Of a stretch of 55,113 nucleotides of DNA, positions 5,952-54,411 are shown one piece after another (the first letter of the stretch is position 1; each line of letters begins with the position of its first letter). Position numbers and translations under genes: made by a program. The notes beneath the pieces are model-generated. The model did no database searches. It saw only the letters and a list, made by a program, of their open reading frames with translations, and was not told the origin of the DNA. The DNA comes from Anaerolineae bacterium. GTDB lineage: Bacteria > Chloroflexota > Anaerolineae > Anaerolineales > UBA11657. The stretch covers positions 1-55,113 of the forward strand of contig CAUZCX010000002.1 of assembly GCA_963578565.1 (NCBI GenBank), given 5' to 3'.

Positions 5952-6215
5952 ATGAATATCGGATTACTATGGTTTGACAACGGTTCGCAGCGCTCATTGA
6001 AAGAAAAAATCGGTAATGCTGTAAGTCATTACACACATCGCTTTGGCGACAGACCTACAGTGTGCTACATGCACCCTGACACGCTAGATGCAGATTTTAA
6101 TTCCTTCAAGGGAGTACGGCTTATGACAGCCATCAACGTCTTGCCGCATCATTTTTGGGTGGGTATGGAGACCGATCCGCAGCAGCAAGCCAATAGTAAT
6201 GCGCCGAGTAGGTGA
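5952..6215 (+). CDS. Hypothetical 87-aa soluble protein inserted between mraY and murD
   Basis: Strong SD AAGGAG 7 nt before ATG 5952. Its stop overlaps the murD GTG (GTGA). No family recognised by eye. Confidence 0.5.
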   Translation: MNIGLLWFDNGSQRSLKEKIGNAVSHYTHRFGDRPTVCYMHPDTLDADFNSFKGVRLMTAINVLPHHFWVGMETDPQQQANSNAPSR

Positions 6216-44141: not shown

Positions 44142-45200
44142 CTATGCTCCATCCCTACTGAGACGATCCAGAATCGTGCGCAGCACTACAATACTGCGCT
44201 GAAACTCCACCAACGAAATATGTTCCTCCGGCGTGTGATCGAGGCTAGAATCGCCCGGGCCATATGCAATAGTTGGGCAACTCCAAGCCGGCGCGACCAT
44301 ATTCATATCGGAAGTTCCGGTTTTTACCACGAAATGCGGCTTACCACCCTCGGCACGGATTGCGGAAAGCGCAGCGCGCACTAGCGCGGTGTTTTTTGGG
44401 GCGCGATAAGCCGGCACGGCTGCGGGCAGTGCCTCGACCTTAATTCTAGGGCCAATCAGCTGTCGCACCTTTGAGTGTATCTCTGGTACTGCCAATCCCT
44501 CCGGTAATCGGAGGGTCACTCGTAACTGAGCACGCTCGTGGAGACCGTCGCTCTCGGATTGCATTGTGCGAAGTGTGGGTGTTACCTGGTCGAACACTCG
44601 CGAGCGACCCGCATTATAATCTCGTGTCCACCCCACGAGCGCATCCCAAACGGAGATTGCGATCTCGCATGCGTTGGCCTTGTCGCTTGCTGGGTGAGCC
44701 GTGTCAGTCTCCGCCGTGAGTGTATATGTAACCCAGCCTTTGTAGCCAAGCGTTACTCGGTCCCATCCACTAGGCTCGCCGATGATGAGGGCATCAGGCA
44801 CTGGGAAATGGTCTCGAAGGTGGGTCGCACCTGCGGAATCACCTTCCTCGTGAACCGCGCCGATAACAGTGACCTGGAGATGTGGTAGTGCCCCCAGCGC
44901 TGCCACAGCGACGAACGCTGCGAGCGGGCCTTTGGCATCAACTGCGCCTCGTCCAAAAAGCAAGTTTCCCTGCTTGCGCACAGGGATTTCTCCCGGTGCG
45001 GTGTCTATGTGTCCCAGCAGAAGCACGTGCAGCTCTCCAGAGCCTATGCGCCCGATTGCGCTGCCGACCGGGTCAATCTCGACTTCAAGGCCGGCTGCGC
45101 CCATCTGCTCAGCCAGATAGCGCACAGCTTCGCCTTCGGAGTTGGTGGGGCTGTATATTTTCAGCAGGCCGGTGAGCAGTGATTCTTCGTTAATGATAAT
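44142..45200 (-). CDS. lysK: [LysW]-lysine hydrolase LysK (M20 family, ArgE-like)
   Basis: LLLGHIDTAPGE, GRGAVDAKG, HEEGDS. Last gene of the lys operon. The conserved-looking N-terminus (INEESLLTGLLKIYSPTNSEGEAV) lies upstream of the only canonical start (GTG 45125), so I extend the gene to ATT 45200 (ATC 45197 and ATT 45194 are alternatives). Confidence 0.75.
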   Translation of the reverse strand: MIINEESLLTGLLKIYSPTNSEGEAVRYLAEQMGAAGLEVEIDPVGSAIGRIGSGELHVLLLGHIDTAPGEIPVRKQGNLLFGRGAVDAKGPLAAFVAVAALGALPHLQVTVIGAVHEEGDSAGATHLRDHFPVPDALIIGEPSGWDRVTLGYKGWVTYTLTAETDTAHPASDKANACEIAISVWDALVGWTRDYNAGRSRVFDQVTPTLRTMQSESDGLHERAQLRVTLRLPEGLAVPEIHSKVRQLIGPRIKVEALPAAVPAYRAPKNTALVRAALSAIRAEGGKPHFVVKTGTSDMNMVAPAWSCPTIAYGPGDSSLDHTPEEHISLVEFQRSIVVLRTILDRLSRDGA

Positions 45201-46213
45201 CTCTCTTTCAGTGCTGCGAGCACATCTGCAGTCGTTGCCGTGCCGCCCAGATCCGGGGTGCAGATTCCGGATGCCAGTGTGGCGGTTAATGCTTCGCGCA
45301 TCTGGTTGGCCTCCACGGTATGGCCCAGGTAGGAAAGGGCCATACCCAAACTGAGAATAGCGGCGGTTGGGTTTGCGATGCCTTTTCCGACTATATCAGG
45401 TGCGGAACCATGCACCGGTTCGAACACCGCGTGATTTTCCCCAATGTTTGCCGAGGGCGCAACCCCCATCCCGCCCACCAGAGCGCTGGCGAGGTCGGAG
45501 AGGATGTCACCGTACAAATTGGGCGCGACGATTACGTCGAAGCGTTCGGGCATGCGCACCAGATCATGGGCGAGCGTATCGACCAACCTCTCTTCTATTT
45601 GTACTCTCGGTGCGTGATCTTCCGTGGTCTCGCGTACCACTTTTCGAAACAGATCATCAGAAAGGGTGAGCACGTTGGCTTTGTGGGCAATGGTGAGCAT
45701 CCCGCGGCGCTTCAGTGCGTGCTCAGCGGCCACCCGTGCGATGCGCTCGCAGGCGAGCCGTGTGATGCTGCGCTCTGCGATTGCTGTGTCGGCGTCCTGC
45801 CAGCGTTCACGGCGGATGTAAAGGCCTTCGGTGTTTTCGCGCACTATCAGGATATCAATGTTAGCGCGCGAAGCTCTCACTGGCAGCGAGTACGCCGGTC
45901 GGAGGTTGGCGTACAGGTTCAGTTCCTGTCGTAAATCAAGTATCGGGCTGCGATATCCGGGTGCCCCCCCGCTGGGCGAGCTGGTCGCTCCAAAGAGCGC
46001 CACGGTGCATCGTTTGATTGCAGTCAGTGTGTTTTGTGGCAGCGCGCTGCCAGTTTCTTGGAAGCATCCCCATCCGGCCAGATGGGTTTCCGTAGTTATG
46101 CCAAGGTCGAGCGCGTCAAGGATTTCAGCGGCAGCGGGGATAACTTCGGCGCCGATGCCGTCGCCGGGGAGCAGGCAGATGGTGGTCATATGTTTTTGGA
46201 CATGTGAGATCAC
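45161..46213 (-). CDS. Homoisocitrate dehydrogenase (isocitrate/isopropylmalate dehydrogenase family)
   Basis: LLPGDGIGAEV, NLYGDILSDLAS. The homoisocitrate assignment rests on operon context. Confidence 0.78.
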   Translation of the reverse strand: MISHVQKHMTTICLLPGDGIGAEVIPAAAEILDALDLGITTETHLAGWGCFQETGSALPQNTLTAIKRCTVALFGATSSPSGGAPGYRSPILDLRQELNLYANLRPAYSLPVRASRANIDILIVRENTEGLYIRRERWQDADTAIAERSITRLACERIARVAAEHALKRRGMLTIAHKANVLTLSDDLFRKVVRETTEDHAPRVQIEERLVDTLAHDLVRMPERFDVIVAPNLYGDILSDLASALVGGMGVAPSANIGENHAVFEPVHGSAPDIVGKGIANPTAAILSLGMALSYLGHTVEANQMREALTATLASGICTPDLGGTATTADVLAALKERLSLTKNHCSPAC

Positions 46214-46216
46214 GTT

Positions 46217-46726
46217 TTACGTTTCCGACTTTGTTCTGTCATGTAGCTTGTTCTGCACAAAAGCTACCAATCCCCCCGCCGCCAGAATCGCCTGCGCGGT
46301 TTCTGAGAAGGGCGCGAAAGGGAAAACGTGTCCCTTCAGGGTGATGGTGTACTTTTGCATGTCCAGTATGACGGGTGCACCATGCTGGGCGGCGGCGATT
46401 GCCTGAGGGCAGATTATTGCAGGCAAGCCGTTGTTGATGGCGTTGCGGTACCATATGCGCGCGAAGCTGACTGCAATGACCGCGCCTACACCGGTTGCCA
46501 CTAGACAGGTGACGGCCTGCTCACGCGAGCTGCCGTTGCCGAAGTTCTTTCCGGCTACGATTATGTCACCCGGTTGTACATTGGCGGCGAAATGAGCGTC
46601 CAGATCTTCAAGTGCGTGGGTTGCCATCTCCGTCTGATCGCGGAGCGTGTAGGTATATTTGCCGGGGAATATTACGTCGGTGTTGATGTCATCTCCATAT
46701 TTCCACACCCGTGGCCGTGTACTCAT
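46217..46726 (-). CDS. hacB: Homoaconitase small subunit (LeuD-like)
   Basis: 169 aa. [28 protein letters not shown]. Assigned from context. Confidence 0.8.
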
Positions 46727-48009
46727 AGCGGCTCCAATTCGCGAGGGTCGGCGATGACGCCGGCAATCGCAGTAGCGGCCGCAACCGCCGGGCTAGCGAG
46801 ATAGATCTCGGCTTCCGGTTGTCCCATGCGCCCGCGGAAATTGCGGTTAGCGGTGGAGAGGCAGACTTCTCCCGGCGCGAGTACGCCCATATGATTCCCC
46901 ATGCAGGGGCCGCATCCGGGCGTTCCAATGGTTGCGCCCGATTCGAGTAGCGTGGCAATGTATCCTTCTTCGATGGCTTCCTGTAATACCTGACTGGATG
47001 CCGGGATGACCAACATACGAGTGCCCTTTGCTACCTGTCGCCCCTGCAGCAGCTTTGTTGCCATGGCTATATCTTCCAGACGCCCATTGGTGCAGGTTCC
47101 CAGAAAAACTTGATCTACTGGCCGCCCAGCGACCGATGGGAGCGCTTGTACATTGTCGACGCGGTGCGGGCACGCTATCTGCGGTTCCAGGGCACTGAGA
47201 TCAATCTCCACTGCTCTTGAGTATTTTGCTCCGGGGTCGGGATAGAGCGCAAGCTTGCTGATGTCTGATGGCTGACGGCTGACGGGCGAACTAGCTGCGA
47301 GCCAGTTGAAGACCAGTTCATCCGGCGGAAGATAGGCGTTTTTCGCGCCGATTTCAGCCATCATGTTTGGGATGACCATGCGGCTTTCAATGCTCAGGGT
47401 GGAAATGCCGGATCCGTCAAATTCTATCGAGGCGTATAACCCGCCATCTGCGCCAAGCTGTCCGATGAGGTGCAGGCACAGATCTTTGCTGGTTACACCC
47501 TGCGGTATCCTGCCGGTGAGTGTGACTCGGATACTTTCCGGGACGCGCAGCCATAATTCACCGGTGGCCCATAGTGTGGCTACTTCGCTGCGTCCCACCC
47601 CCGCGCCAAATGCGCCAAGCCATCCAAAGTGCGTGGTATGGCTGTCCGCGCCAAGAATCAGCTGCCCTGGCAGAATCAATGCTTCTTCGCTGAGTACTTG
47701 ATGACAGATGCCGCGTCCGACTTCGAAAAAATTGCGGATACCCTGCCGCGCAACGAAATCGCGGATTTCAGCATGATTGCGGGCGTGCAGCGGGGTAGGG
47801 GGTGGCGCGGCGTGGTCAAGTGTTATCGCCAGTTTTTCAGGGTCCTGCACGTGCTCCAACTCAAACTGCGTGAAGATTGTGGCGATGGCAGCCGTGTTGT
47901 CGTGCGATAGGATGCGATCCGGGCGCGCGTCTACTGTCGCGCCGATGGTGACCTGTGGCAGTCCGGAAGCACGAGCGCAGGCTTTCTGAGCGAAGGTTTG
48001 TGGGGGCAT
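46723..48009 (-). CDS. hacA: Homoaconitase large subunit (short LeuC-like)
   Basis: 428 aa. Aconitase-family cluster ligand motifs [25 protein letters not shown]. Confidence 0.83.
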
Positions 48010-49202
48010 CAGCTAACCTGGACTTCCTCAGCGGCTGTCGAAGGCCGCTCGTCACTGCTGTTGTTTGCTTCCGCCCACTGGTGGAGCAACTCGTCCACGT
48101 CGCTTAGAGTGAGGCGCTTATGGTCCGCCATTGCTTTTATGTGGCGCGTTACGGCCTGTAGGTTTGTGCGGTCGAGTTTAAGCCCTAGCTGTTCGGCACG
48201 ATCCTGCATGGCGTTCCATCCGGTCAATTTGTGCGCTATGGAAATATACCGAGTTAGGCCGAAATCGGCGGGGTCAAGTATCTCATAAGTCTCAGGGTTG
48301 TTCAGAATAGCCTTGGCATGTATGCCGGCTTTGTGTGTGAAAGCGGTGAGGCCCGTGATATAGTGGTTGAACGGTATTTCAATCTCTGCCTTGTCGGCCA
48401 CAAGTTGGTTTAGGTCATGTAGGTGGTGCAGGCGATATTTTGTGCGTACCGTGTCAGGATCGGTTGCGTATAGTCGTGCAATCAGGCCCTCGAGTGGGGT
48501 GATTCCGTTGCGCTCGCCTATGCCGAGTACAGTGGTATCGATATGTGTGGCGCCGGCTTCGAGTGCGGAAAAGCTGTTGGCGATTGCGCAACCGGTGTCG
48601 TTGTGGCCGTGGAATTCGATGTCGGAATCGGTTAGTTGGCGTAGCGTGGTTACAAGGTTGAATACTCCGTTCGGCGTGGCCACACCAACTGTGTCCGCTA
48701 CTCCGAAGCGGTCAACGACTCCTAGGTTTCTTACAGCTTGATACACGCGCAGCAAGTCCTCCTGTGCACTGCGAAAGGAGTCCTCGGTGGAGAAGCGTAG
48801 TTCAATATCAGGTGCTTGGGAGTGGATGAAAGATAGCACATCGGTGGCTAATTCTATTACCTGGTCAATGCTTTTTCCGTGGCTGAAGTCACGCAGGTAT
48901 GAGGAAGTGCCGATGACGACGTCGATTCCGTCCGCGCCGGTATCGAGCGCGATGCGAGCGTCCTCCATATGGCATCGGATATGCGTGAGTACTTTAGTTG
49001 TCAGCCCTAGGGACGAAATGTGGGCACAGTCCGTAAGCGAACTTGGCGACGCGCAAGGCGAGGTTAACTCGATATATTCGACTCCGAAATCGGCAAGTGC
49101 GTGCGCGATTTCCACCTTGTCCTCCGACGTGAAGTCCGCGCCGACGAATTGCTCGCCTTCGCGTAGGGTGCTCTCGATGATGGAAAAGTCATGTAAAGGC
49201 AT
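48009..49202 (-). CDS. Homocitrate synthase
   Basis: [24 protein letters not shown]. The 397-aa length lacks the LeuA C-terminal regulatory domain. Assigned from context. Confidence 0.83.
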
Positions 49203-49244
49203 GTTTGTCTCGTGTGGGATAATCCCTCTTTTCTCAGCTTCCGG

Positions 49245-50420
49245 TCAACTCGCAGTAGTGGTGCCGCGCAGCATGTTTGCTACGGTTGTGCTGACCTGCT
49301 CCCATTCCTCAGTACTGATTACCAAAGGTGGCAGCAGGCGTAGTACGGTTTTTCCAGCAGGGAGAGCAAGCACGCCCTGCTCTTGCAGTGCTCGCAACAG
49401 CGGAGTAACTTTCTGTGTCAGCTCAATACCAATCATTAACCCGAGGCCGCGCACTTCGCTCACACATGGCAGGTCGGCTGCACGCAGGTGGCCAAGAAAA
49501 TGTTCCCCCAGTTGGGCAGCTCGCTCGGGTAGCTTTTCAGCTTCGAGCGCTTCCAGCACTGCTAACGCGACAGCGCAAGCCAGCGGGTTACCACCGAAAG
49601 TCGATCCATGCGCGCCAGAAGGCAATGCGACTACACGAGGTCCTAGCAGTGTAGCGCCCATTGGCAGCCCGCCTGCCAGAGACTTCGCTAGACAAAGAAT
49701 GTCCGGTTCCAAGTCGTAATGCTCGCAGGCGAACATCTTTCCGGTGCGTCCCAGCCCGGTCTGCACCTCGTCCAGAATCAACAGCGCGCCGTGATCGCGG
49801 CAGAGGCGTTGAGCAGCGTGCAGGTAGTCAGGCTCGGCGGGTCGTACACCACCCTCTCCCTGCACCACCTCCAAAATCATGGCTGCCGTACGCTCGCTGA
49901 CTGCTCCACTAAGCGCTTCAATATTGTTATATGGAATGTGCGACACATCTGGCACCAAAGGCTCGAATGGCACACGGTGTTTTTTCTGACCGGTGAGCGT
50001 GAGTGCACCCATGGTACGACCGTGGAAGCTGCGCAGTGTACTTATTACTTCAGTGCGTCCGGTGCTGATGCGCGCGAATTTCAATGCGGCTTCCACTGCC
50101 TCAGCGCCAGAGTTGCACAGGAAGGCGCGCTGCATTTCTCCCGGTGCTATTGAGGTCAGGTGAGCGAGCAAGCGTGCGCGCTGGTCGTTGTGGAAAACTT
50201 CCGGGCAGGTGATTAGGTGTCGCGCCTGTTTTTCTATTGCCTCAACTACTGCCGGATGACAGTGCCCCAGATTGGCAACGCCGTGACCGGCGACGCAGTC
50301 AATGTATTCGCGCCCGTTCGCATCCCACACGCGGGCGCCCATGCCGCGCACGATTGTCAGATCCCGTTTGGGATATACGCCACTGGTGTGTAGAGCTTCG
50401 ATGGCCTGAAAGTCATCCAT
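49245..50420 (-). CDS. lysJ: [LysW]-aminoadipate semialdehyde / acetylornithine aminotransferase LysJ
   Basis: Class III PLP aminotransferase: CNSGAEAVEAALK, LILDEVQTGLGRTGKMFA. Confidence 0.85.
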   Translation of the reverse strand: MDDFQAIEALHTSGVYPKRDLTIVRGMGARVWDANGREYIDCVAGHGVANLGHCHPAVVEAIEKQARHLITCPEVFHNDQRARLLAHLTSIAPGEMQRAFLCNSGAEAVEAALKFARISTGRTEVISTLRSFHGRTMGALTLTGQKKHRVPFEPLVPDVSHIPYNNIEALSGAVSERTAAMILEVVQGEGGVRPAEPDYLHAAQRLCRDHGALLILDEVQTGLGRTGKMFACEHYDLEPDILCLAKSLAGGLPMGATLLGPRVVALPSGAHGSTFGGNPLACAVALAVLEALEAEKLPERAAQLGEHFLGHLRAADLPCVSEVRGLGLMIGIELTQKVTPLLRALQEQGVLALPAGKTVLRLLPPLVISTEEWEQVSTTVANMLRGTTTAS

Positions 50421-51219
50421 TGATAAGCGTTCCTTGCCCGTGCAGTGCTCTCTGGATCGGTTGTGCTACCCGCCCATCGGCAAGAATTACCTGTGAGACG
50501 CCGCCTTGCAGCGCTTCAAGCGCACTGATAAGTTTGCGTTTCATACGCCCTTGCGCTATGGTCTTTATGGCGTTTTCCAGTTGGGCCTCTGGCAAGCGTG
50601 GGATACGGCTGCTTTCATCGGCGACATCGCGCAGCAGCCCCGGCACGTTGCTAAGGATCAGCAGTCGATCAGCTCCTAGGGCGACAGCAATTTGTGCGGC
50701 GGCGCGGTCGCCGTCGACGTTTAACGGCTCCCCTGCTGCCGAGATAGCCACTGGCGCAATTACCGGCGTTAACCCGGAATCCAGAAGTGCGCGCAGTGGG
50801 GTGGGATTTACCTGCTGAATGCGGCCTGTGTAATCATCGCGTAAAATCTTGCGCTTGCCGTTTTCCAAAATGCGCAGCGTGTCTTTGCGCTCCGCCAGCA
50901 GCAATTGACCATCGAGCCCGCTGAGTCCGGCGGCGTTTACACCCAGTGTTTGTAGCTGCGCTACCAGTTGCCTATTGAGAAGCGCAGTTGCCATCAGGAA
51001 AATATCCAGGGTGCGTCGGTCAGTGTATCGGCTGGTGTGCCCGCTGACCGAAGTGACGAAGCGCGGCGGGTAACCGAGCTGTTTACCCAGCTCAGTCGCT
51101 AGCCCCGAACCGCCGTGTACGATGACCAATTGGGTGCCCGCCTGGGCTTGCGCGGCGGTATCTGCCGTGATGTCGTTAGTATCTACGCCGTCCGCGCCGC
51201 CAATTTTAATAACTAGCAT
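50413..51219 (-). CDS. lysZ: [LysW]-aminoadipate kinase LysZ (ArgB family)
   Basis: Start placed at ATG 51219 (MLVIKIGG...), 11 nt after the lysY stop. LVIVHGGSG. Amino-acid kinase fold. Confidence 0.85.
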   Translation of the reverse strand: MLVIKIGGADGVDTNDITADTAAQAQAGTQLVIVHGGSGLATELGKQLGYPPRFVTSVSGHTSRYTDRRTLDIFLMATALLNRQLVAQLQTLGVNAAGLSGLDGQLLLAERKDTLRILENGKRKILRDDYTGRIQQVNPTPLRALLDSGLTPVIAPVAISAAGEPLNVDGDRAAAQIAVALGADRLLILSNVPGLLRDVADESSRIPRLPEAQLENAIKTIAQGRMKRKLISALEALQGGVSQVILADGRVAQPIQRALHGQGTLING

Positions 51220-51229
51220 GTTACGTTTC

Positions 51230-52267
51230 TTAGACTGGATGCAACCCGGTGAATTCGAGTGCAGTTGTCTCTTCAAAACCGCACATCAGATTCAAGCATT
51301 GCACTGCCGTTCCAGCAGCCCCTTTCATCAAATTGTCAATTGCGCATACCGCCACCACGCGCCCGGTTTCGGCGTCTAGGTCAAAACTCACATCGGCGAA
51401 ATTGCTTCCAGCTAGAATTTTCGGCTCCGGTCGGCGGTAATTGCCTTGCTTCTCGCGCACAATGCGCACGAAGGGTTCTTGTTTATAGGTAGCGCGATAC
51501 GCGCGCCAAAGGTCCTTCTCGGTTGTGCCGGGTTGCGTAAAGGCATGCGAGGTTGCAAGTGCCCCACGCACCATCTCGATGGCGGTCAAACTCATGTGTA
51601 TATCCGAAACACCTAATGCCTGTTGCACCTCGGCTGTGTGGCGGTGACCGACTGGCGCATAGCTACGCACGGCGCCTTTGCGCACTGGGTGATGGGTGCT
51701 CGGATTTGCCTGTGCTCCGCCCTCAGATGATCCGGTTTTGACCTCGGCGATGATTGGACGTTCTGGTACTAGTAGATGATGCTGGACGAGCGGCAGCAGT
51801 GCCAGGATGGTAGCAGTGGCGTTGCATCCCACACCGCTGACATGGTGTGTCTCGCGGATGGCTTCCCGGTGGATTTCGGGCAGCCCGTATACAAAACGTG
51901 GCAGCCAGTTCAAGGCGGCGTGCGCCTTGCCGTACCAGTGTTCATAATCTTCCCAGGAGCGCAGCCGGAAATCAGCGGAAAGATCGATGATGCGCGGTGC
52001 GAGCTGTGAATATCGCTCGATTTCGCGCTGGGCTACTCCGTGCGGCTGCGTCAGCACAAGCAAATCAGCATTGGTCAATGTTTCTGGCTCCACAAAGCTT
52101 GGCAGGTCGCTTTCTCGCAGATGGGGGTGTACGCGGCGGATAGGCTGTCCTGCATAGGTGCGTGAAATCGCCTGCCCGATTTCCACCTCGGGGTGGTTGA
52201 CCAGCAAGCGTAGTATTTCGCCACCAGTGTATCCGGAGGCGCCAACGATGGAGACGCGCATGTTCAC
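51230..52267 (-). CDS. lysY: [LysW]-L-2-aminoadipate 6-phosphate reductase LysY (ArgC family)
   Basis: IVGASGYTGGE. Active-site SGVGCNATA. Confidence 0.88.
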   Translation of the reverse strand: MNMRVSIVGASGYTGGEILRLLVNHPEVEIGQAISRTYAGQPIRRVHPHLRESDLPSFVEPETLTNADLLVLTQPHGVAQREIERYSQLAPRIIDLSADFRLRSWEDYEHWYGKAHAALNWLPRFVYGLPEIHREAIRETHHVSGVGCNATATILALLPLVQHHLLVPERPIIAEVKTGSSEGGAQANPSTHHPVRKGAVRSYAPVGHRHTAEVQQALGVSDIHMSLTAIEMVRGALATSHAFTQPGTTEKDLWRAYRATYKQEPFVRIVREKQGNYRRPEPKILAGSNFADVSFDLDAETGRVVAVCAIDNLMKGAAGTAVQCLNLMCGFEETTALEFTGLHPV

Positions 52268-53109
52268 TTGGCCACCTGAAGCGTTTGGTCTATTATCATG
52301 CCGGGCAAGTCAACACCGGTAAGCGGAAAGGTGGAGTGGAATTCCATCGTGTGGTTGATTTCGTTTATCAAAAGCCCGCGATCAGGGTCCTCCAGTAGGT
52401 CAATTGCTAGTACTCCGCCGCCCACGGCCTGTGCGGCGCGTTGGCAGAGATCGTGGAGTTCCGCAGTGACGGCACACTCACTTGCGGTGGCGCCACGGGC
52501 GGTGTTGGTCAGAAAGTGATCGGAGTGGCGGTAAATCGCGACCGGCGTCTCTGTGTCAATCACAAAAGCACGGATGTCACGGCCGGGCTTTTCAATCAAC
52601 TCCTGTATGTAATATAAGTGGTGCTGGAAGCTGCCCAAAACCTCGCGATGCTCGAAGACCGCTTCTGCAGCATCGCGGTCGTTGATGCGGTTAACCAGAC
52701 GTCCCCACGACCCAACTACCGGCTTGACGACGTAGGGGTAGCCAAGTTCCTCCCCGGCGGCAATAGCCGCGTTCGCGGTGAAAGCGAGGTGGGTGCGCGG
52801 CTGCGGAAGCCCGGCTTGGGCAAGGGTGATGGTTGTAGCCACTTTGTCGGTGCAAACCGCTGCCACTGCGTGCGAGTTGATTGTGGGCACGTCAACGCTG
52901 TTGAGCGCCTGCGCGGCGTACAGTCCGCGACTGGTGCTCAAGCTGCGAATGATAACAGCGTTATAACGCTGCCAGTCATCCGCTGTGGTCAGGTCGAAAG
53001 TGACTTCGCGGTCTTGGAGCCGGTCGTAGGCTACGTTGCGCTCCTCGAGGGCCGCGAACAGCCATTTTTCCTCGACGCGGAGGCGAGAGTAGAGAACGCC
53101 GATGCGCAT
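52264..53109 (-). CDS. lysX: Alpha-aminoadipate--LysW ligase LysX (RimK-type ATP-grasp)
   Basis: 281-aa ATP-grasp protein. Immediately downstream of lysW. ATGA-type overlap with lysY. Confidence 0.88.
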   Translation of the reverse strand: MRIGVLYSRLRVEEKWLFAALEERNVAYDRLQDREVTFDLTTADDWQRYNAVIIRSLSTSRGLYAAQALNSVDVPTINSHAVAAVCTDKVATTITLAQAGLPQPRTHLAFTANAAIAAGEELGYPYVVKPVVGSWGRLVNRINDRDAAEAVFEHREVLGSFQHHLYYIQELIEKPGRDIRAFVIDTETPVAIYRHSDHFLTNTARGATASECAVTAELHDLCQRAAQAVGGGVLAIDLLEDPDRGLLINEINHTMEFHSTFPLTGVDLPGMIIDQTLQVAK

Positions 53110-53121
53110 GATGGTTATCTG

Positions 53122-53180
53122 AAGCGCAAAGCGTAAAACGTGACGTGCAAAGGATTTGTCATCTTTTACGCTTTGCGCTT
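53122..53180 (-). repeat. Perfect 17-bp inverted repeat (AAGCGCAAAGCGTAAAA / TTTTACGCTTTGCGCTT) with a 25-nt loop between lysW and lysX
   Basis: Arms at 53122-53138 and 53164-53180, read directly. The promoter-proximal arm overlaps the lysW stop codon. The distal arm ends 12 nt before the lysX ATG. No U-tract follows. Confidence 0.6.
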
Positions 53181-53364
53181 ATTCTCCCCAGTCCTCGGCT
53201 TCTTCCGGGGCCAGCATGATGGTAAGCGGCTGCAGTGAACGTACTTCCAGCTCGGCGCCGCAATCATCGCAGGCCAGTATCTCACCCAGCTCGACCTGAT
53301 TAAGGTCGAGAGCCCCCACGCATTCTGGGCACTCTGCGGTGGTGGTGATGGTGTTGGGTGTCAT
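53179..53364 (-). CDS. lysW: Amino-group carrier protein LysW
   Basis: 61 aa. Zinc-ribbon CPEC...CDDC. Acidic C-terminus ending EDWGE. AGGAGG SD 10 nt upstream. Confidence 0.9.
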   Translation of the reverse strand: MTPNTITTTAECPECVGALDLNQVELGEILACDDCGAELEVRSLQPLTIMLAPEEAEDWGE

Positions 53365-53390
53365 CGTATTATATCCTCCTGTGACATAGA

Positions 53391-53420
53391 ATCAAAAAAC
53401 CCCGTGCTTGGCGGGGTTGT
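53391..53420 (-). terminator. Intrinsic terminator in the lysW 5' leader (AACCCCG-CCAAGCA-CGGGGUU followed by UUUU)
   Basis: 7-bp GC-rich stem (+ coordinates 53412-53418 / 53398-53404), 7-nt loop, run of six U on the - strand. Lies between the leader ORF and the lysW SD. Confidence 0.6.
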
Positions 53421-53455
53421 TATCTGCATATGGTGCCGGTGAGGAGCTTCTGCTG

Positions 53456-53557
53456 TTACACCGCTGCGCCCAAACACAAATTAACCAACCCCGCACGGGT
53501 GGGCTTGGTCTTCTTATCCTTGTTCGTTTTGGCGGTAAACAGCACTTTCATCGGCAT
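53456..53557 (-). CDS. Candidate lysine-rich leader peptide, 33 aa (MPMKVLFTAKTNKDKKTKPTRAGLVNLCLGAAV)
   Basis: ATG 53557 with GGAGA 5 nt upstream; TAA stop at 53456-53458. Six Lys codons, five of them within codons 10-18. The ORF overlaps RNA segments complementary to the terminator arm. Confidence 0.5.
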   Translation of the reverse strand: MPMKVLFTAKTNKDKKTKPTRAGLVNLCLGAAV

Positions 53558-53578
53558 GACTATCTCCAATTGCTGTAT

Positions 53579-53607
53579 AGTTTACCACATGATTAATATT
53601 CGTGCAA
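53579..53607 (-). promoter_or_regulatory. Promoter candidate for the lys leader/operon (TTGCAC - 17 bp - TGgTAAACT)
   Basis: Hexamers, 17-bp spacer and extended -10 TG read directly on the - strand. The -10 box lies about 20 nt upstream of the leader ATG. Confidence 0.35.
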
Positions 53608-53640
53608 ACTCTGCTTGCACCTGGCAGCCTGCTCAGTGAA

Positions 53641-53669
53641 TTGACGGTTAGTACCGCTTTTGGTAATAT
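53641..53669 (+). promoter_or_regulatory. Promoter candidate (TTGACG - 17 bp - TGgTAATAT) for the + strand MarR-like/Ddn-like genes
   Basis: Read directly. The -10 box lies 27 nt upstream of GTG 53697. Divergent from the lys promoter. Confidence 0.4.
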
Positions 53670-53696
53670 TAAGTTAGCTTAACTAATCGGTCTGAA

Positions 53697-53968
53697 GTGA
53701 TGACTTCCAACGTGGAATTCTCCCAGGTGTTGCGCGATTGGGGGCGTGAAATGATGTATCACTCTCGGCGTGATTTTATGCGAATCATGCGGGAAAGCGG
53801 ACTGAGCATGACGCAGGTGCAGCGAGTAGCGTACTTGCGGCAGCAATGGTTGGAAGAGCTAATTCCACACTCTCCGAAGCACAGCGTGTACAAATCAGGG
53901 ATGCACTCGTCCTGCTAACCGAAGCGGCAAGCGAACTGGAAGCATTTCATCCTGGGGATGGAAAATGA
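53697..53968 (+). pseudogene. MarR-family regulator remnant (internal deletion of the wHTH plus a frameshift)
   Basis: N-terminal ...DFMRIMRESGLSMTQVQ jumps straight to ...QQWLEELIP. After a frame change near 53866-53870 the reading continues TLSEAQRVQIRDALVLLTEAASELE and ends at a TGA overlapping the next ATG. The total of about 90 codons is too short for MarR. Confidence 0.45.
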
Positions 53969-54411
53969 ATTCGCCTAGAACTGGTGGCAGCACCGCAGGG
54001 TTAAGTAGGGTGCTGATTCGTGCGTTCATGCGGATGCATACGTGGGTCTACCGGCGTACCGGTGGACGGCAGATGGGATGGGTACAGGGAACGCGCGTGC
54101 TGCTTCTCAGCACCACTGGACGCAAGAGTGGGCGCTTGCACACTGTGCCGCTAGGCTCCGTCAATTATGATGATAACCACGTGGTGGTGGCCTCTAACGG
54201 TGGAAAGCACTGGCACCCTGCCTGGTGGCTTAACTTGCAGAGCAACCCGGAGGCGCTCATAGAGGTAGGAAGCCGACAAATTCCTGTGGTTGCGGAGCGG
54301 GCGCAGGGCGAGGAGTGCGCTCAGCTTGAACCGCGTTTCCCCTGGCTCCAGCGTTATCAGGAGCGCACGCAGCGCGAAATCCCGATTGTGATTCTCCATA
54401 AGGTGGCATAA
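53965..54411 (+). CDS. Deazaflavin (F420)-dependent nitroreductase-family protein (DUF385/Ddn-like)
   Basis: LLLSTTGRKSGRLHTVPL, VVVASNGGKHWHPAWWLNLQSNPEALIEVG, REIPIVIL. Confidence 0.72.
   Translation: MNSPRTGGSTAGLSRVLIRAFMRMHTWVYRRTGGRQMGWVQGTRVLLLSTTGRKSGRLHTVPLGSVNYDDNHVVVASNGGKHWHPAWWLNLQSNPEALIEVGSRQIPVVAERAQGEECAQLEPRFPWLQRYQERTQREIPIVILHKVA

Follow-up and report, generated by a model that had tools for sequence, protein, structure and literature searches.

A predicted lysine-sensing leader-peptide attenuator upstream of lysW in Anaerolineales

What controls transcription of the ten-gene lysine (lys) operon of an Anaerolineae bacterium known from assembly GCA_963578565.1? The operon lies on contig CAUZCX010000002.1, of which positions 1 to 55,113 were analysed as one stretch of DNA, referred to here as the window. 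Upstream of lysW, the first structural gene, there is a leader whose elements are all read on the minus strand, in the region 53391-53607: a promoter-like site, a short open reading frame (ORF) with a cluster of Lys codons, RNA segments with alternative pairings, and a terminator. We conclude that this element is very probably a ribosome-mediated leader-peptide transcription attenuator that senses lysine or, more precisely, charged tRNA-Lys. The basis is the anatomy of the leader, its conservation in relatives, its specificity for Lys codons, a conserved pairing with limited covariation, and the energies of the competing folds.

Transcription is predicted to start near 53573-53571, about 15 nucleotides (nt) ahead of a 33-codon leader ORF. 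By default the transcript would form a long protector hairpin, in which segment 1, carrying Lys codons 13-18, pairs with segment 2, GCGGGGUUGG and its U-rich tail. When lysine is plentiful, or when there is no translation, segment 2 would be either covered by a ribosome that has run on to the stop codon or re-paired with segment 1. Segment 3, left free, would then pair with segment 4, and the resulting hairpin, AACCCCG/CGGGGUU followed by U6, would terminate transcription 13 nt before the ribosome-binding site of lysW. When lysine is scarce, a ribosome would stall on the Lys codons and hold segment 1 open; segment 2 would then take the 5' arm of the terminator, which is segment 3, and RNA polymerase would read through into the ten-gene lys operon. 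Translation of the ORF, stalling, the relative timing of polymerase and ribosome, and the response to lysine are the parts of this scheme that we infer.

Anatomy and folding of the leader

The leader ORF has a start codon and a ribosome-binding site, stands in the leader of a biosynthetic operon and is predicted to be translated; gene callers predict it as a 33-amino-acid gene on five independent contigs. Lys occupies six of its 33 codons (4, 10, 13, 15, 16 and 18), and the five within codons 10-18 are cognate to the end product of the pathway. In the long ORFs of the window 2.5% of residues are Lys, and at that frequency nine codons would include at least five Lys with a probability of about 1e-6, a value not corrected for scanning. 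The promoter-like site ahead of the ORF is kept in close relatives as TTGCAC-N17-TG.TA.ACT. Its -35 hexamer matches the TTGACA consensus at only three of six positions, which is why the site is unlisted in a consensus promoter scan.

The segments can pair in alternative ways (Table 1). The core of segment 1, CCAAGCCC (53508-53501), pairs with the core of segment 2, GGGGTTGG (GGGGUUGG in RNA letters; 53492-53485), with one G.G mismatch, and GCGGGGTTG (GCGGGGUUG in RNA letters; 53494-53486) is the exact complement of CAACCCCGC (53419-53411). Around these cores, the minimum-energy fold joins 53526-53501 with 53492-53467 in the protector, with Lys codons 13-18 paired to segment 2 and its U-rich extension, while the antiterminator duplex joins 53494-53476 with 53427-53411 and forms 17 of 17 pairs, nine exact and eight further. 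Between the leader ORF and lysW there is an intrinsic terminator with a 7-bp G+C-rich stem and a U6 run (53418-53394: AACCCCG, a 7-nt loop, CGGGGTT, T6). It was also picked up by a terminator scan and ends 13 nt upstream of the lysW AGGAGG (53380-53375). The window stop codon stands about 30 nt past segment 2. Outside the protector helix, the first nine codons of the ORF are predicted to pair in a lower stem, and similar nested long-range stems appear in the free folds of several relatives.

An initial annotation, made from the letters of the window, had proposed a promoter candidate TTGCAC-17-TGgTAAACT, the 33-codon ORF at 53557 to 53456 with a GGAGA Shine-Dalgarno sequence and six Lys (five of them in codons 10-18), a segment 1:2 pairing with one mismatch, an extended segment 2 exactly complementary to the region of the terminator 5' arm, and a terminator hairpin with a U-run before the lysW AGGAGG. 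All of these were confirmed at the positions it had assigned, the promoter with the reservation about its -35 hexamer. The gap to AGGAGG, put at about 10 nt, measures 13 nt, and both the segment 1 helix and the antiterminator are longer than had been drawn.

Table 1 Features of the lysW leader and the operon behind it, in window coordinates
Feature	Position	Strand	Details	Source
Promoter-like site	53579..53607	-	TTGCAC 53607-53602, 17-nt spacer, extended -10 TGgTAAACT 53587-53579	read from sequence
GGAGA ribosome-binding site	53563..53567	-	5 nt upstream of leader ATG; GGAG/GAGG kept in window clade	
Leader ORF, 33 codons + stop	53456..53557	-	ATG at 53557, TAA 53458-53456; encodes MPMKVLFTAKTNKDKKTKPTRAGLVNLCLGAAV	
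Candidate regulatory Lys codons 10, 13, 15, 16, 18	53504..53530	-	AAA, AAG, AAG, AAG, AAG	
Lower protector stem, 5' strand	53532..53556	-	ORF codons 1-9; pairs with 53464-53434	minimum-energy fold
Segment 1, 5' strand of protector (anti-antiterminator) helix	53501..53526	-	includes Lys codons 13-18	
Segment 2, shared strand	53467..53494	-	pairs with segment 1 (53492-53467) or segment 3 (53494-53476, GCGGGGUUGGUUAAUUUGU)	
Lower protector stem, 3' strand	53434..53464	-	covers ORF end and stop codon	minimum-energy fold
Segment 3, antiterminator 3' strand	53411..53427	-	GCAGAUAACAACCCCGC; contains terminator 5' arm AACCCCG (53418-53412)	
Segment 4, terminator 3' arm and U6 run	53394..53404	-	CGGGGUU (53404-53398); U6 (53399-53394)	terminator scan
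lysW, first structural gene	53179..53380	-	including AGGAGG 53380-53375; lysW 53364-53179	Pfam Zn_ribbon_LysW; homologues named LysW
Rest of operon	44142..53109	-	lysX, lysY, lysZ, lysJ, homocitrate synthase, homoaconitase large and small subunits, homoisocitrate dehydrogenase, lysK-like M20 peptidase	

The pairing between the ORF and the terminator is far stronger than chance would give. When the ORF region is matched to the 20 nt that finish with the terminator 5' arm, the most stable duplex has an energy of -22.6 kcal/mol, compared with -11.3 +/- 2.5 kcal/mol in 500 dinucleotide shuffles, none of which reached it. Folding of the whole leader gave z = -3.1.

The effect of a ribosome was modelled as a masked footprint in constrained folding, both on the full-length leader and on pre-terminator transcripts, which end before segment 4. 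The free full-length leader had a minimum energy of -61.6 kcal/mol, with protector and terminator formed. In the pre-terminator transcript, the probability that segment 3 is paired rose from 0.08 in the free RNA to 0.99 with a ribosome on Lys16. The energetic advantage of the antiterminator was 0 kcal/mol in the free leader and -6.9, -8.6, -12.3 and -11.4 kcal/mol with a stall on Lys13, 15, 16 and 18, respectively; it was again 0 kcal/mol with the ribosome on codon 25, which lies on segment 2, and -1.1 kcal/mol with the ribosome at the stop codon. At full length, a stall gave -54.6 kcal/mol for the antiterminator versus -45.2 kcal/mol with the terminator enforced, and a ribosome at the stop codon left the terminator present in the minimum-energy fold. 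A footprint over Lys13-18 therefore flips the window fold to the antiterminator in silico, and the constrained folds reproduce the switch between the 1:2 + 3:4 and 2:3 states that had been proposed from the sequence. Because the full-length equilibrium fold gave a clear switch in the window and L085 only, pre-terminator folds were used for the relatives, and in this test L085, L094, L098, L100 and L003 switch like the window.

Conservation, covariation and Lys specificity

Relatives were drawn from the closest species-level genomes, from contigs with LysW homologues and from a pattern scan of metagenomes. More than 20 distinct relatives, comprising Anaerolineales genomes and metagenome contigs, have the element ahead of lysW, and in every family member a short ATG-initiated ORF with a Lys cluster is followed by the shared RNA elements. 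What the family shares is limited to the terminator, the RNA pairings and an in-frame cluster of Lys codons; the remaining peptide drifts and even changes frame, and the ORF ranges from 22 to 36 codons. Leader peptides include MMTFYAPFSVKAKKVKKNKPTRAGLADLRLGAAVQ (L002), MTTFSLPLSIEAKKSKKEKLTRAGL... (L001), MMTFSLPFISAEAKKCKKNKLTLSRL... (L088), MNTSVIAVYKAKKSKPTLDGVG (L004), M..KQSKKTNSIMMGLVCFRLAKHTV (L005, L093 and L121), MAPCLDCIKQKDSKKARPIFAGL... (L094), MSKFPNNVKPKESKKTNPIFQGL... (L098), MVYTRYTRKSKKATTLWGWSFCA (L006) and MKQMKLLFSAKTMKAKKTKLTRVGL... (L119). AAA and AAG swap within the Lys cluster from one relative to another. In L003, L004 and L010 a 1-nt insertion shifts the frame, and the ORF ends in segment 2 (GGG GTT GGT TAA), with the nucleotides GGGGTTGGTTAATTTG identical to those of the window despite the frame shift. 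The divergence of the peptide, the AAA/AAG swaps and the frame shift over identical nucleotides indicate that it is the RNA and its Lys codons, rather than a protein, that are under selection.

In more distant family members (L005, L093, L094, L098, L006 and L100) no Shine-Dalgarno sequence precedes the leader ATG, which is only 7-10 nt past a -10-like hexamer (TATTCT, TAATAT, GATAAT or TAAAAT), an arrangement that suggests that their leader mRNAs are leaderless or nearly so. The window clade, by contrast, has a 5' untranslated region of about 15 nt that carries GGAG.

A covariance model of the family scored 85-125 bits on all these members, always just upstream of lysW, and had a single match in the 55-kb window. 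It found no match in the more distant Anaerolineae or the Thermaceae examined. Of the 27 sequences matched in the pattern scan of metagenomes, the model failed to retrieve 18 at E <= 0.001, and these were set aside as unrelated. The leader is not universal upstream of lysW: in L105, lysW follows 70 nt behind an isocitrate/homoisocitrate dehydrogenase gene with no ORF or terminator between them, and in L106 a Y1 transposase gene lies upstream. In many of the more distant Anaerolineae (L052, L054, L064, L066, L067, L068, L071 and L080) a conserved gene ending in ...RNAIGGTSLQSVKNQIKKIKGE has its 3' end ahead of lysW, and neither a Lys leader nor an Rfam element was found upstream of lysW there.

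Structural support was counted in an alignment of 18 sequences (A2). A further alignment with metagenome sequences added (A3) was left out of the counts, the terminator 3' arm of L094, L095 and L098 being one column off. In A2 the terminator helix is paired in 95.8% of cells and three of its pairs have changed on both sides; the terminator and the 1:2 helix together have a covariation score of 0.201 versus 0.156 in shuffles, a value reached by 0 of 500. The antiterminator comprises 17 pairs (columns 32-50 with 102-118) and is paired in 80.7% of cells, as against 37-52% when the strands are slid; four pairs have changed on both sides, among them G-C to A-U at 32/118 and U-A to C-G at 38/112 and 42/109. 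In L005 and L093, segments 2, 3 and 4 change in concert to GGGGCU, GGCCCC and GGGGCU. The extended protector, in which the Lys AAG codons pair with the UUU of the segment 2 tail, is paired in 77% of cells, versus 29-59% with its partner slid by 1-3 columns. Covariation support is thus clear for the terminator and weaker, at a moderate level, for the antiterminator. The initial annotation had named the small ORF with its Lys codons and compensatory changes in the stems as things to look for in relatives; the ORF and the cluster are kept, and both the terminator and the 2:3 pairing are maintained through paired changes.

Specificity for Lys was surveyed at 78 usable loci by counting ATG-initiated ORFs of 8-60 codons ahead of lysW or, at loci that lack lysW, ahead of lysX. 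At least three Lys in six codons occurred at 30 of the 78 loci, against one on the reverse strand and 1.5 in shuffles; for at least four Lys in six codons the numbers were 13, 0 and 0.1. Enrichment in these short ORFs was confined to Lys and absent for the other 19 amino acids. About 19 of the 30 Lys-cluster loci are clear leaders, of the window type or of a second architecture described below. Several of the 30 were rejected as false positives that are 3' ends of the upstream conserved gene (L067, L068 and L071, for example).

Weighing the attenuator against other explanations

Several observations weigh against a lysine attenuator. The -35 hexamer of the promoter-like site is weak by the E. 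coli consensus. The aligned sequences are related, the antiterminator core GGGGUU/AACCCC is invariant, and the covariation of the antiterminator by itself is modest (0.195 versus 0.175, reached by 60 of 500 shuffles); the protector helix is kept, but its covariation is no higher than in shuffles. For L001, L002 and L087 the folds predict the antiterminator in every state, whether or not a ribosome is stalled, and most relatives keep the terminator in the full-length equilibrium fold despite a stall. In relatives without an equilibrium switch, the folding models imply that the decision must be kinetic, as in classical attenuators. Finally, a ribosome waiting at the stop codon of the window leaves segment 2 uncovered, so termination at plentiful lysine would rely on the protector re-forming.

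Could the terminator instead be controlled by a riboswitch that binds lysine or a pathway intermediate, the ORF being incidental? The leader is structured, as its folding z-score indicates, and the L-box riboswitch is found on lysine genes in many bacteria. However, a ligand pocket leaves unexplained the in-frame Lys-cluster ATG-ORF in every member, the AAA/AAG swaps and Lys as the sole enriched residue, and no conserved multi-helix junction was seen. Above threshold, neither the window nor 20 related loci matched any Rfam family, so the different fold that the initial annotation had allowed for, such as a riboswitch, was not matched. For the lysine riboswitch (L-box, RF00168) in particular, a search of 52900-54100 at E <= 10 was negative, as was one of the entire window and the 20 loci at the gathering threshold; a T-box leader was likewise unmatched in the window, even at E <= 10, and in the related loci. 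The sole Rfam resemblance was to Trp_leader, at 16 bits (E = 3) where the family threshold is 41 bits, which we attribute to chance or generic hairpin similarity. We regard a riboswitch as extremely improbable. Hardly any more credible is the idea that the ORF encodes a functional basic peptide of 33 amino acids and that the hairpin and U-run are merely its terminator. The ORF is indeed predicted as a gene on several contigs and has a ribosome-binding site and a promoter-like site, yet beyond the Lys cluster neither the peptide nor its length is conserved, and L003, L004 and L010 read the same nucleotides in a shifted frame. Moreover, no promoter-like site for lysW itself is conserved in the relatives, lysW lies 13-60 nt past the terminator in all members, and a complement of 9-17 bp to the terminator arm inside the ORF exceeds chance (0 of 500 shuffles).

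The remaining alternatives concern what is sensed, and by what. The leader might be a translation-dependent attenuator that is not specific for lysine and responds to translation capacity, to stalling by a polybasic nascent chain or to sliding on A-rich codons. The RNA would switch in the same way whatever slowed a ribosome on segment 1, AAG/AAA runs and polybasic peptides can slow ribosomes, and L006 and L100 carry AAAAGCAAAAAAG. Set against this, the Lys codons are cognate to the product of the operon, as in every characterised amino-acid attenuator, most members have interrupted AAG codons and not long A-runs, and a terminator would be pointless if stalling were constitutive; we consider this reading very unlikely. 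A protein could also be the real lysine sensor, whether a regulator that binds the RNA or a repressor that binds DNA at the promoter, with the hairpins as its target or as secondary features. While the promoter region is kept in close relatives and an additional layer of control may exist, no repeated protein-binding motif of the kind formed by TRAP or PyrR sites was seen in the leader, no regulator gene accompanies the operon (its upstream neighbours differ, as between L081 and L085), and the Lys-codon ORF accounts for the conservation without a protein. That a protein is the sensor seems scarcely probable.

Read as a lysine attenuator, the leader resembles enterobacterial trpL, hisL, leuL, thrL, pheL and ilvL in its 1:2 / 2:3 / 3:4 layout, with the regulatory codons in segment 1, in its intrinsic terminator and in having termination as the predicted default in the absence of translation; it differs in sensing lysine. 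The stop codon on segment 2 in the L003 group is also like that of trpL, whereas in the window the stop codon lies well beyond segment 2 and termination would come about by the protector re-forming rather than by a ribosome masking segment 2. In common with the lysine riboswitch, a terminator in the 5' leader would control lysine synthesis genes; the sensor here would be a translating ribosome, there it is a ligand-binding RNA.

A closer counterpart is the Lys leader-peptide attenuator that has reportedly been described upstream of hcs in the alpha-aminoadipate cluster of Thermus thermophilus. We read a leader of this type in an Oceanithermus contig (L107, 6530-6670), upstream of hcs-hacA-hacB-...-lysW-lysX. 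It consists of TTGACA-17-TAATAT, then MKYQEAKKLCAGGAG (15 codons, with an AAA AAA tandem), an alternative pairing GCCGGAGG.../CGCCTCCGGC (GCCGGAGG/CCTCCGGC), and an GGCCTGCAAACGTTTGCAGGCC terminator with a T-run. The same L107 intergenic region also holds an extra called ORF of 45 amino acids (6069-6206). Like the Thermus type, the window has an alpha-aminoadipate operon that begins, at its 5' end, with a short Lys-codon ORF, a set of alternative hairpins and an intrinsic terminator, and in both a stall on Lys codons would favour the antiterminator. The window peptide is the longer and Lys-richer of the two, as the initial annotation had surmised, with 33 codons and six Lys compared with 15 and three in L107. 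Unlike the Thermus type, which precedes hcs, the window leader precedes lysW in a rearranged ten-gene operon and has its Lys codons in a long protector helix, and the organisms belong to Chloroflexota and Deinococcota, respectively. The covariance model of the window family found no match in Oceanithermus L107 or L108. Judged on their sequences, the two leaders appear analogous, and homology is not demonstrable.

To our knowledge, Thermus is the only case in which experiments have shown leader-peptide control of lysine genes; the modes of control known elsewhere are the L-box riboswitch and protein regulators. A limited literature search found no description of Lys leaders in Chloroflexota, or of leader peptides linked to LysW or Anaerolineae. 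The mechanism is a classical one that brings no new principle, and the element itself is new to Anaerolineales in the literature searched.

Genomic context, other leaders and significance

Behind the leader, ten genes on the same strand (53364 to 44142) run lysW-X-Y-Z-J-hcs-hacA-hacB-hicdh-lysK and make up a complete alpha-aminoadipate pathway. Pfam matches in the operon are RimK/LysX, Semialdhyde_dh, AA_kinase, Aminotran_3, HMGL-like with HCS_D2, Aconitase, Aconitase_C, Iso_dh and Peptidase_M20. The genes are probably co-transcribed, given their tight spacing and shared strand. The closest LysX sequences, at 85% identity, come from ALOHA and Tara metagenome-assembled genomes, and the window belongs to a marine member of the Anaerolineales.

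A near-perfect hairpin of about 15 bp, GCGCAAAGCGTAAAA ... TTTTACGCTTTGCGC, lies between the lysW stop and the lysX start (53118-53182, minus strand) and has no U-run. It might make the lysW portion of the mRNA more stable or be a partial barrier; relatives have unrelated hairpins or none at this position. The miRNA-like Rfam matches in the window arose from this hairpin and were rejected as spurious, due to chance or generic hairpin similarity. On the other side of the leader, a divergent promoter-like site, TTGACG-17-TAATAT (53641-53669, plus strand), points away from the lys operon and faces an ORF of 73 amino acids with no Pfam match (53697-53918, plus strand), beyond which the next gene belongs to the F420H2-dependent quinone reductase family (53965-54411). 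The GTCAAT of the divergent -35 hexamer is kept also in L002.

Other types of leader were seen in the survey of Anaerolineae. A second Lys-leader architecture stands directly before lysX, with no lysW between, and has KKAKKNR.P peptides in ORFs that resemble MNTLPNTLNAKKAKKNRSPQAGLRSFAVGRCRR; it occurs at L012 (1594-1695), L017 (3-110), L039 (2798-2905), L015, L016, L029, L031, L033, L035, L037 and L057. These loci have TTGACA...TAAAAT promoters upstream and GCCCTCCGG-type terminators downstream, and the covariance model of the window family gives weak matches only, at 19-23 bits. Lys-codon leaders of at least two architectures thus appear, from their sequences, to be common in the class. A third group, upstream of lysW, mixes Lys and Arg codons (L014, L020, L034, L041, L019, L058, L036 and L056), with peptides such as MFTVALPKREFRLPKRPNCGSRLVWLG, MNTINAFVTKRAPRRPKPYG..., MNWIAGLKRARRFPKP..., MFTVALPKREFRLPKRP... 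and ...KRAPRRPKP.... The mixed-codon ORF of L014 is at about -170 from lysW. Behind most of these ORFs comes a terminator, at a distance of about 20-35 nt from lysW; in L019 the distance is about 110 nt, and in L020 no terminator was detected. The enrichment of mixed Lys/Arg leaders is weak, at five loci versus 0.8 in shuffles.

It is a doubtful generalisation, which we put forward as speculation, that leader peptides and not riboswitches are the general means of controlling the LysW pathway in Anaerolineae, with the leader codons tracking the product of the pathway. The LysW/LysX system serves both lysine and arginine synthesis in some archaea. If the generalisation were true, the mixed Lys/Arg leaders would fit a LysW/LysX system that serves both syntheses, with one attenuator sensing both amino acids.

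For annotation, the gain is twofold: a cis-regulatory element and a small ORF, at present either missing from annotations or called hypothetical. The attenuator predicts a terminated RNA of about 180 nt in metatranscriptomes, and the leader is potentially a compact lysine-responsive part for synthetic biology. For the organisms themselves, the finding describes a conserved family of RNA and small ORF in uncultured marine and freshwater Anaerolineales, and places the entire ten-gene pathway of lysine synthesis behind one predicted translation-coupled switch.

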